Source of the DNA: a plasmid
NCBI RefSeq assembly: GCF_058153355.1
Contig: NZ_JBLWLY010000003.1
DNA length: 2,028 bases
Reading direction: 5' to 3' (one strand)
How positions within the stretch are numbered: the first letter of the stretch is position 1; each line of letters opens with the position of its first letter. The position numbers and the translations under genes were made by a program. This document shows positions 442 through 504 of the stretch, one piece after another. Below the pieces are notes generated by a model. It was given only the letters and a program-made list of their open reading frames with translations. It did not search any database and had not been told where the DNA came from.

Positions 442-451
442 TCTCTGGAAT

Positions 452-476
452 GCCGCAAATGACGTCACTTTGCGGC
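452..476. terminator. Intergenic hairpin between the convergent rep-like and mob genes; candidate bidirectional terminator or protein-binding palindrome
   Basis: GCCGCAAA (452-459) and TTTGCGGC (469-476) are perfect reverse complements, flanking a 9-nt loop that contains the palindrome TGACGTCA (460-467). It sits in the 63-bp gap between the two stop codons. There is no clear U-tract on either side, so an intrinsic-terminator call is tentative. Confidence 0.4.
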
Positions 477-504
477 GTTAGCCCTATCCTGCATCGCATC
501 AAAA

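Follow-up and report, generated by a model that had tools for sequence, protein, structure and literature searches.

A probable orphan IncX-type origin of transfer between the convergent rep and mobV genes of a 2,028-bp Escherichia coli plasmid

The window analyzed here, a stretch of 2,028 nucleotides, corresponds to the entire circular plasmid pB349aT_3 of E. coli SWYH.B349aT (100% identity over the full length). Sixteen near-identical plasmid records, at 99.7% identity or more, come from E. coli, Shigella and Klebsiella hosts. The coding content of the plasmid consists of a replication protein and a MOBV relaxase only. The rep gene (positions 1–441, + strand) is a 146-amino acid open reading frame (ORF) for a small winged-helix replication protein, carried in RefSeq under the name 'MarR family transcriptional regulator'. 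Comparison of its product with Pfam gave sub-threshold matches only, to winged-helix entries and to Phage_rep_O, and this product is presumably the Rep of the plasmid. We note that the N-terminus of Rep is variable, with many related plasmids aligning only from approximately position 61 onward. Upstream of rep, across the circle junction, lie two 21-bp direct repeats (1966–2007, + strand), each of which contains the palindrome TTACCAATAATGGTAA; these look like iterons, and probably act as such, or as an operator, in connection with the small winged-helix Rep.

The mobV gene (505–1494, - strand) is a 329-amino acid ORF encoding a MOBV relaxase that is recognized by the Pfam family Mob_Pre with an E-value of 5.7e-45. 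Its start is ambiguous, being placed at 1494 by the longest ORF and at 1473 by RefSeq. Further along the plasmid, at 1694–1735, there is a 10-bp perfect inverted repeat (TCGTCAAGGG/CCCTTGACGA) with a 22-nt loop, which is not conserved in two aligned MobV relatives.

The rep and mobV genes are convergent and are separated by a spacer of 63 bp, which reads TGA TCTCTGGAAT GCCGCAAA TGACGTCAC TTTGCGGC GTTAGCCCTATCCTGCATCGCATCAAAA CTA and is filled nearly completely by the segment 447–498 that is the subject of this work. An earlier note on this DNA had described, between the two convergent genes, a perfect 8-bp stem formed by GCCGCAAA (452–459) and TTTGCGGC (469–476) around a 9-nt, nearly palindromic loop, TGACGTCAC (460–468), and had remarked on the lack of a U-tract on either strand. 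All of these observations were reproduced. The first eight nucleotides of the loop, TGACGTCA (460–467), are a perfect palindrome, and the nucleotides that come after the stem are GTTAGCCC (+ strand) and ATTCCAGA (- strand). A repeat finder extended the inverted repeat to arms of 11 nt with one mismatch: a left, nic-distal arm (449–459, + strand), of which GCCGCAAA is the perfect part, and a right, nic-proximal arm, TTTGCGGCGTT (469–479, + strand).

Folding of a 33-nt segment as RNA yielded -16.0 kcal/mol on the + strand (z = -4.9, with none of 200 shuffles equalling it) and -13.2 kcal/mol on the - strand (z = -3.1), while folding of the 51-nt segment 432–482 as DNA, + strand, yielded -10.5 kcal/mol (z = -3.2). 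We also asked how frequently chance yields a perfect stem that reaches 8 bp or more and encloses a loop of 3–12 nt. Such a stem is held by 25% of dinucleotide shuffles of the window (mean of 0.36 per shuffle); the window itself has two, at 452–476 and 1540–1558, a number reached by 6% of the shuffles. The stem is thus only weakly beyond chance, and the significance of the feature rests on homology rather than on the stem.

Downstream of the repeat lies a region that the earlier description had left out (483–497), and that contains a MOBP nick motif of the form (Y)ATCCTG(Y), namely TATCCTGC (485–492, + strand), with 12 nt between the end of the repeat and the predicted nick. MOBP relaxases have (C/T)ATCCTG(C/T) as their consensus nick sequence, and in a typical oriT of that class a highly conserved nick region follows an inverted repeat that is more variable (PMC3772185). 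The window has two occurrences of YATCCTGY, versus 0.23 expected. The second occurrence, CATCCTGC (1065–1072), lies inside mobV with no inverted repeat adjoining it, and is most likely a chance match. On the basis of the MOBP consensus, nic is predicted to be located at G491|C492 on the + strand; RP4 is cut at ATCCTG|C. The RP4-type sequence CTTCACCTATCCTGCCCGG was found between traJ/traI and traK in IncP plasmids, where it is preceded by an inverted repeat of its own.

A sensitive BLAST search of positions 420–520 against 72,556 plasmids (7.3 Gb) identified 2,509 matching records, mostly IncX and typically matched at two places each. Of these records, 1,554 are conjugative plasmids, and small plasmids with unrelated replicons and flanks are also included. 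Outside close relatives, the matched part was always 447–498 of the window (+ strand), which is to say the hairpin and the 20 nt after it, with E-values of 6e-9 to R6K and of 7e-8 to IncX3. The homology involves both oriT copies of R6K and those of other IncX plasmids; between R6K oriT-alpha and positions 459–498 of the window, 38 of the 40 bases are identical. The IncX3 plasmid pTB203 carries two copies in inverted orientation relative to each other, one located approximately 90 bp upstream of ddp1 (taxA), a gene that precedes the one for a MobP1-family relaxase, and the other between ddp3 and a small ORF adjoining the replication initiator gene. Both copies of R6K (IncX2) are found at the same places as in pTB203. 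Overall, one copy in IncX plasmids lies upstream of taxA-taxC, which includes the MOBP relaxase gene, and the other lies between ddp3 and bis. The function of the R6K oriT was reportedly first shown, and its nic mapped, by Avila et al. in 1996. The two long inverted repeats are those named oriT-alpha and oriT-beta, near taxC and near the replication gene, respectively, and the double oriT has been described as a hallmark of IncX plasmids (PMC3332091, PMC3402527). 'R6K-like' is also a named oriT family in the survey of Ares-Arroyo et al. 2023 (PMC10123127).

The window carries approximately 52 bp of the IncX long inverted repeat, which measures approximately 98 bp; homology begins at around position 447, and the distal part (CAACAAGAACCGACTGTAGGTCACCGGGCAAACG...) is absent. 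Since the distal half is missing, any TaxA site located there is absent too. In addition, neither taxA nor taxC is present on pB349aT_3, which has only rep and mobV. The copy is therefore an orphan, for which TaxC would be needed in trans.

In order to define the conserved part of the element, we aligned 14 copies: those of the window and of one relative, two from R6K, two from IncX3, and the remainder from small plasmids, comprising one of 1.5 kb, three ColE1/Rop plasmids, two of rep_cluster_2373 and two ColpVC rolling-circle plasmids. The alignment has 28 invariant columns, all of them within 461–498 and none outside, and the flanks are unrelated. A conserved core at 461–496 (+ strand) is common to R6K oriT-alpha and oriT-beta, to IncX3 and to the small plasmids with unrelated replicons. 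Its consensus, of approximately 36 bp, is GACGTCAyTTTGCGGCGTTwGCCCTATCCTGCATCG, and corresponds to the right arm and the next 17 nt. The right arm is conserved in 14 of the 14 copies, and the nick region (483–497), which is likewise invariant in all 14, is the most conserved part of the element. Conservation is thus one-sided and takes in the right arm and the 20 nt located 3' of it, but neither the left arm nor the loop, both of which vary from one plasmid to another; indeed, a proper left arm is missing in four small-plasmid copies (of 13).

The hairpin itself takes two forms in these copies. The left arm of R6K, of IncX3 and of several small plasmids pairs along the full length of the right arm, GACGTC included, generating a hairpin of 20–22 bp with a stability of -14 to -18 kcal/mol as DNA. 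GACGTCA in R6K and IncX3 is the start of the conserved nic-proximal arm and not a loop. The repeat of the window, like that of one ColE1-like plasmid, is instead centered on the self-complementary GACGTC and has a short stem, of 8–11 bp in the window, whose hairpin is weaker than the IncX ones (-10.5 versus -14 to -18 kcal/mol).

The predicted nicked strand forms a more stable hairpin than the complementary strand does in 12 of 13 copies, and this difference is clear in six of the nine copies that have a strong hairpin; for IncX3, the values are -17.6 kcal/mol on the predicted nicked strand and -12.0 kcal/mol on the complement. This difference stems from transitions between the two arms, such that the nicked strand has G.T pairs where the other strand has A.C mismatches. 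Such an asymmetry is what one would expect if the structure acts in single-stranded form, as part of the transferred strand. We note that the IncX3 (17065–17115) and R6K (22738–22791) repeats are 2–6 kcal/mol more stable on the transferred strand.

Exact matches to the core were also encountered in species-representative genomes, 11 in number, all but one on contigs of approximately 3 kb or less. Most of the copies are on contigs of 0.3–3 kb, and the assemblies concerned are assigned to Streptomyces, Marinobacter, Arthrobacter, Vogesella, Rhodosalinus and Bacillota MAGs, several of which are implausible hosts; one such core-bearing contig shares the mobV 3' end of the window. This presence of the core looks like contamination by, or mis-binning of, enterobacterial small plasmids, and does not bear on function.

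Taken together, the homology, the nick motif, the architecture and the distribution of the copies lead us to propose, with a probability of roughly 0.75, that 447–498 is a short orphan copy of the IncX (R6K-like) oriT, and that the hairpin is its inverted repeat. As far as can be judged from sequence, the oriT to which this hairpin belongs is most likely a second means for the plasmid to enter new cells, and not a transcription terminator. The label of the feature for annotation should be oriT, not terminator. The earlier note had also offered, as a fallback, a protein-binding or recombination site. This suggestion pointed in the right direction, because an oriT is a site where a relaxase nicks and rejoins DNA, but it was pinned on the loop palindrome TGACGTCA, a detail that did not hold up. 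Indeed, in plasmids with the same Rep/MobV backbone the stem is invariant, while the loop is TGACGTCAC, TGACCTCGT or TGGCGTCAT, and the palindrome changes from TGACGTCA to TGACCTCG or TGGCGTCA. This variation counts against the loop palindrome as a specific binding site.

The segment could also be a non-functional remnant, that is, the scar of a past recombination with an IncX plasmid, kept by descent in a young plasmid lineage, although we consider this unlikely. The window holds just half of the long IncX inverted repeat, as would suit a remnant, and the pattern within the family points the same way: the element is found in eight of eight sampled relatives of the Rep/MobV backbone, but its conservation does not exceed that of the flanking genes, and the core is damaged in some relatives, of which one has lost 1 nt of the nick motif and another has four core substitutions. 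Identity in this family is 92% overall, however, so that the within-family comparison has little power. The strain of origin likewise has no IncX plasmid among its recorded plasmids, the others being a 110-kb IncF conjugative plasmid (MOBF, MOBP) and a 6-kb ColE1-like MOBP plasmid (NZ_CP091774.1, NZ_CP091775.1), and thus in that isolate the IncX-type oriT is without its cognate helper. What argues against a remnant is that the same core, with the same boundaries, recurs in many unrelated small replicons with unrelated flanks, and that the nick region did not change in any of the 14 copies. Repeated independent capture of one piece of approximately 40 bp is hard to explain without selection.

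We judge it improbable that the hairpin serves mainly as a bidirectional terminator or 3'-end stabilizer for the convergent rep and mobV transcripts, which was the first suggestion of the earlier note and for which we found no specific support. Its location between two convergent genes, its stability as RNA on both strands and the invariance of the stem in the Rep/MobV family would all suit such a role. Nevertheless, no U-tract follows the stem on either strand, a terminator scan had no match at the site, and a search of Rfam at the hairpin returned no family. Moreover, the same sequence is found elsewhere at places that are neither gene ends nor the meeting point of convergent genes, such as upstream of taxA and in the non-coding DNA of ColE1-like and ColpVC plasmids. 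Conservation that continues for 20 nt past the stem on one side only, with a left arm that varies or is missing, is not the pattern of a terminator. A secondary role of the oriT hairpin as a 3'-end stabilizer or terminator for both convergent transcripts may exist. The sole terminator-like site on the + strand lies at 531–556, in the mobV 3' end, and consists of a 5-bp stem, GCGATCGCGTCTGTCGC, followed by TGTTTTTC; this site could end rep transcripts after they have crossed the oriT.

A single-strand initiation site or other replication signal, or a Xer/res multimer-resolution site, appears very improbable. Hairpins in the non-coding DNA of small plasmids can do such jobs, but a search for the two 11-bp arms of the XerCD cer/dif core (GGTGCGYAYAA / TTATGKTAAAT) with up to three mismatches and a 6- or 8-bp spacer gave no match, pB349aT_3 has no recombinase gene, and homology to a validated oriT family accounts for the whole segment.

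The relation of the element to the plasmid's own relaxase was addressed with a tblastn search using MobV, which gave two informative plasmids with other replicons: one from Klebsiella, with a RepL replicon and a MobV that is 98% identical, and one from Serratia with a MobV that is 65% identical. The IncX-type core had no match in either of these two plasmids with up to three mismatches allowed, but both keep a strongly conserved block upstream of mobV that corresponds to 1528–1590 of the window. This block contains a perfect 8-bp repeat, CACTATCA-AGA-TGATAGTG (1540–1558), followed by TACTCACTAGAC and a second short repeat, and probably represents the oriT on which MobV itself acts. The window has no perfect short-loop hairpins other than those at 452–476 and 1540–1558, which coincide with the two candidate oriTs. 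That the IncX-type element is itself the oriT of MobV is hardly credible, since, although it adjoins the mobV 3' end and has an oriT-like architecture, it is absent next to both of these MobV relatives, which share the upstream hairpin block, its nick motif is of the MOBP type, and in IncX plasmids it accompanies MOBP relaxase genes.

Two links to other small plasmids were considered and rejected. The element named oriT_pKL1 is present in conjugative and mobilizable plasmids alike (Ares-Arroyo et al., PMC10123127), but pKL1 (NC_002145) has no match to the core at three mismatches or fewer, and its Rep has only marginal similarity to that of the window. A link to pIGRK, a small Klebsiella plasmid whose relaxase, MobK, belongs to another class, was set aside.

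If 447–498 is an orphan IncX-type oriT, its mode of action can be outlined as below; it is in this outline that we infer nicking, the exact position of nic and mobilization. The right arm (469–479) and the next 17 nt, with TATCCTG|C, would constitute the recognition and nick region for a MOBP relaxase. A co-resident IncX plasmid would supply TaxC and the accessory protein TaxA, which would bind the right arm and nick region. TaxC would cut the + strand at G491|C492 and remain joined by a covalent bond to C492, the new 5' end, and the TaxC-bound + strand would be exported 5' to 3' through the type IV secretion system of the IncX plasmid. DNA from position 492 onward, the antisense strand of mobV, would enter the recipient first, with rep and the hairpin entering last. 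The hairpin would then refold on the single strand and bring the relaxase to the site of the final cut and rejoining. In this manner, the plasmid would have two mobilization routes, one through its own MobV and the oriT at approximately 1528–1590, and the other through an IncX relaxase acting in trans. It is possible, at what we would regard as slightly less than even odds, that a minimal heterologous IncX oriT of approximately 50 bp, with a collapsed hairpin, does work beside a MOBV system, so that the plasmid could use either relaxase.

Should this be the case, the 36-bp core carried by hundreds of unrelated small plasmids would be the smallest natural substrate of an IncX relaxase, and both the long inverted repeat and the TaxA site would be dispensable. 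IncX plasmids, in particular X3 and X4, are major carriers of the NDM and mcr-1 resistance genes. If the 50-bp element works, such plasmids can move many small cryptic, Col-like and MOBV plasmids that are now typed as 'non-mobilizable' or placed under another relaxase class, and predictions of which plasmids travel together would change. The natural variants also offer a ready map of what the IncX relaxase needs, with an invariant right arm and nick region and an optional left arm.

Comparison with known systems places the element as follows. Like an intrinsic (Rho-independent) terminator, it presents a G+C-containing stem-loop at the end of two genes, but it differs from such terminators in having no U-tract and in a conservation that does not track the hairpin. 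The oriT of RP4 and other IncP plasmids, which is served by TraI (MOBP11), has a nick 8-mer, TATCCTGC, that is identical to that of the window, and also shares CCTATCCTGC; in both IncP and IncX plasmids, relaxase operon, inverted repeat and nick follow one another in the same order. RP4 differs in its repeat arms, which are dissimilar, and in the spacing between repeat and nick, which is approximately 8 nt versus 12 nt in the window, and the relaxase clade that acts on the window is expected to differ from that of RP4.

The closest likeness is to oriT-alpha and oriT-beta of R6K and other IncX plasmids, the substrates of TaxC (MOBP) with TaxA, in which an inverted repeat is likewise followed by TATCCTGC and the hairpin is on the same strand. 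The window differs from these in having approximately 52 of the approximately 98 bp, one copy rather than two, and no taxA or taxC in cis, and its stem is of 8–11 bp versus 20–22 bp, the left arm having been rebuilt such that the hairpin is centered on GACGTC. Lastly, that small plasmids carry the oriTs of conjugative plasmids is already established, and pB349aT_3 resembles these pOriT plasmids, which are small and carry the oriT of a conjugative plasmid family but not the relaxase that goes with it (relaxase-in-trans; PMC10123127). It differs from them in encoding a MOBV relaxase with a separate candidate oriT, the IncX-type element being the second and heterologous one. The modest novelty lies in the presence of the plasmid's own relaxase beside an orphan oriT, and in the very short core that is defined by the natural copies.
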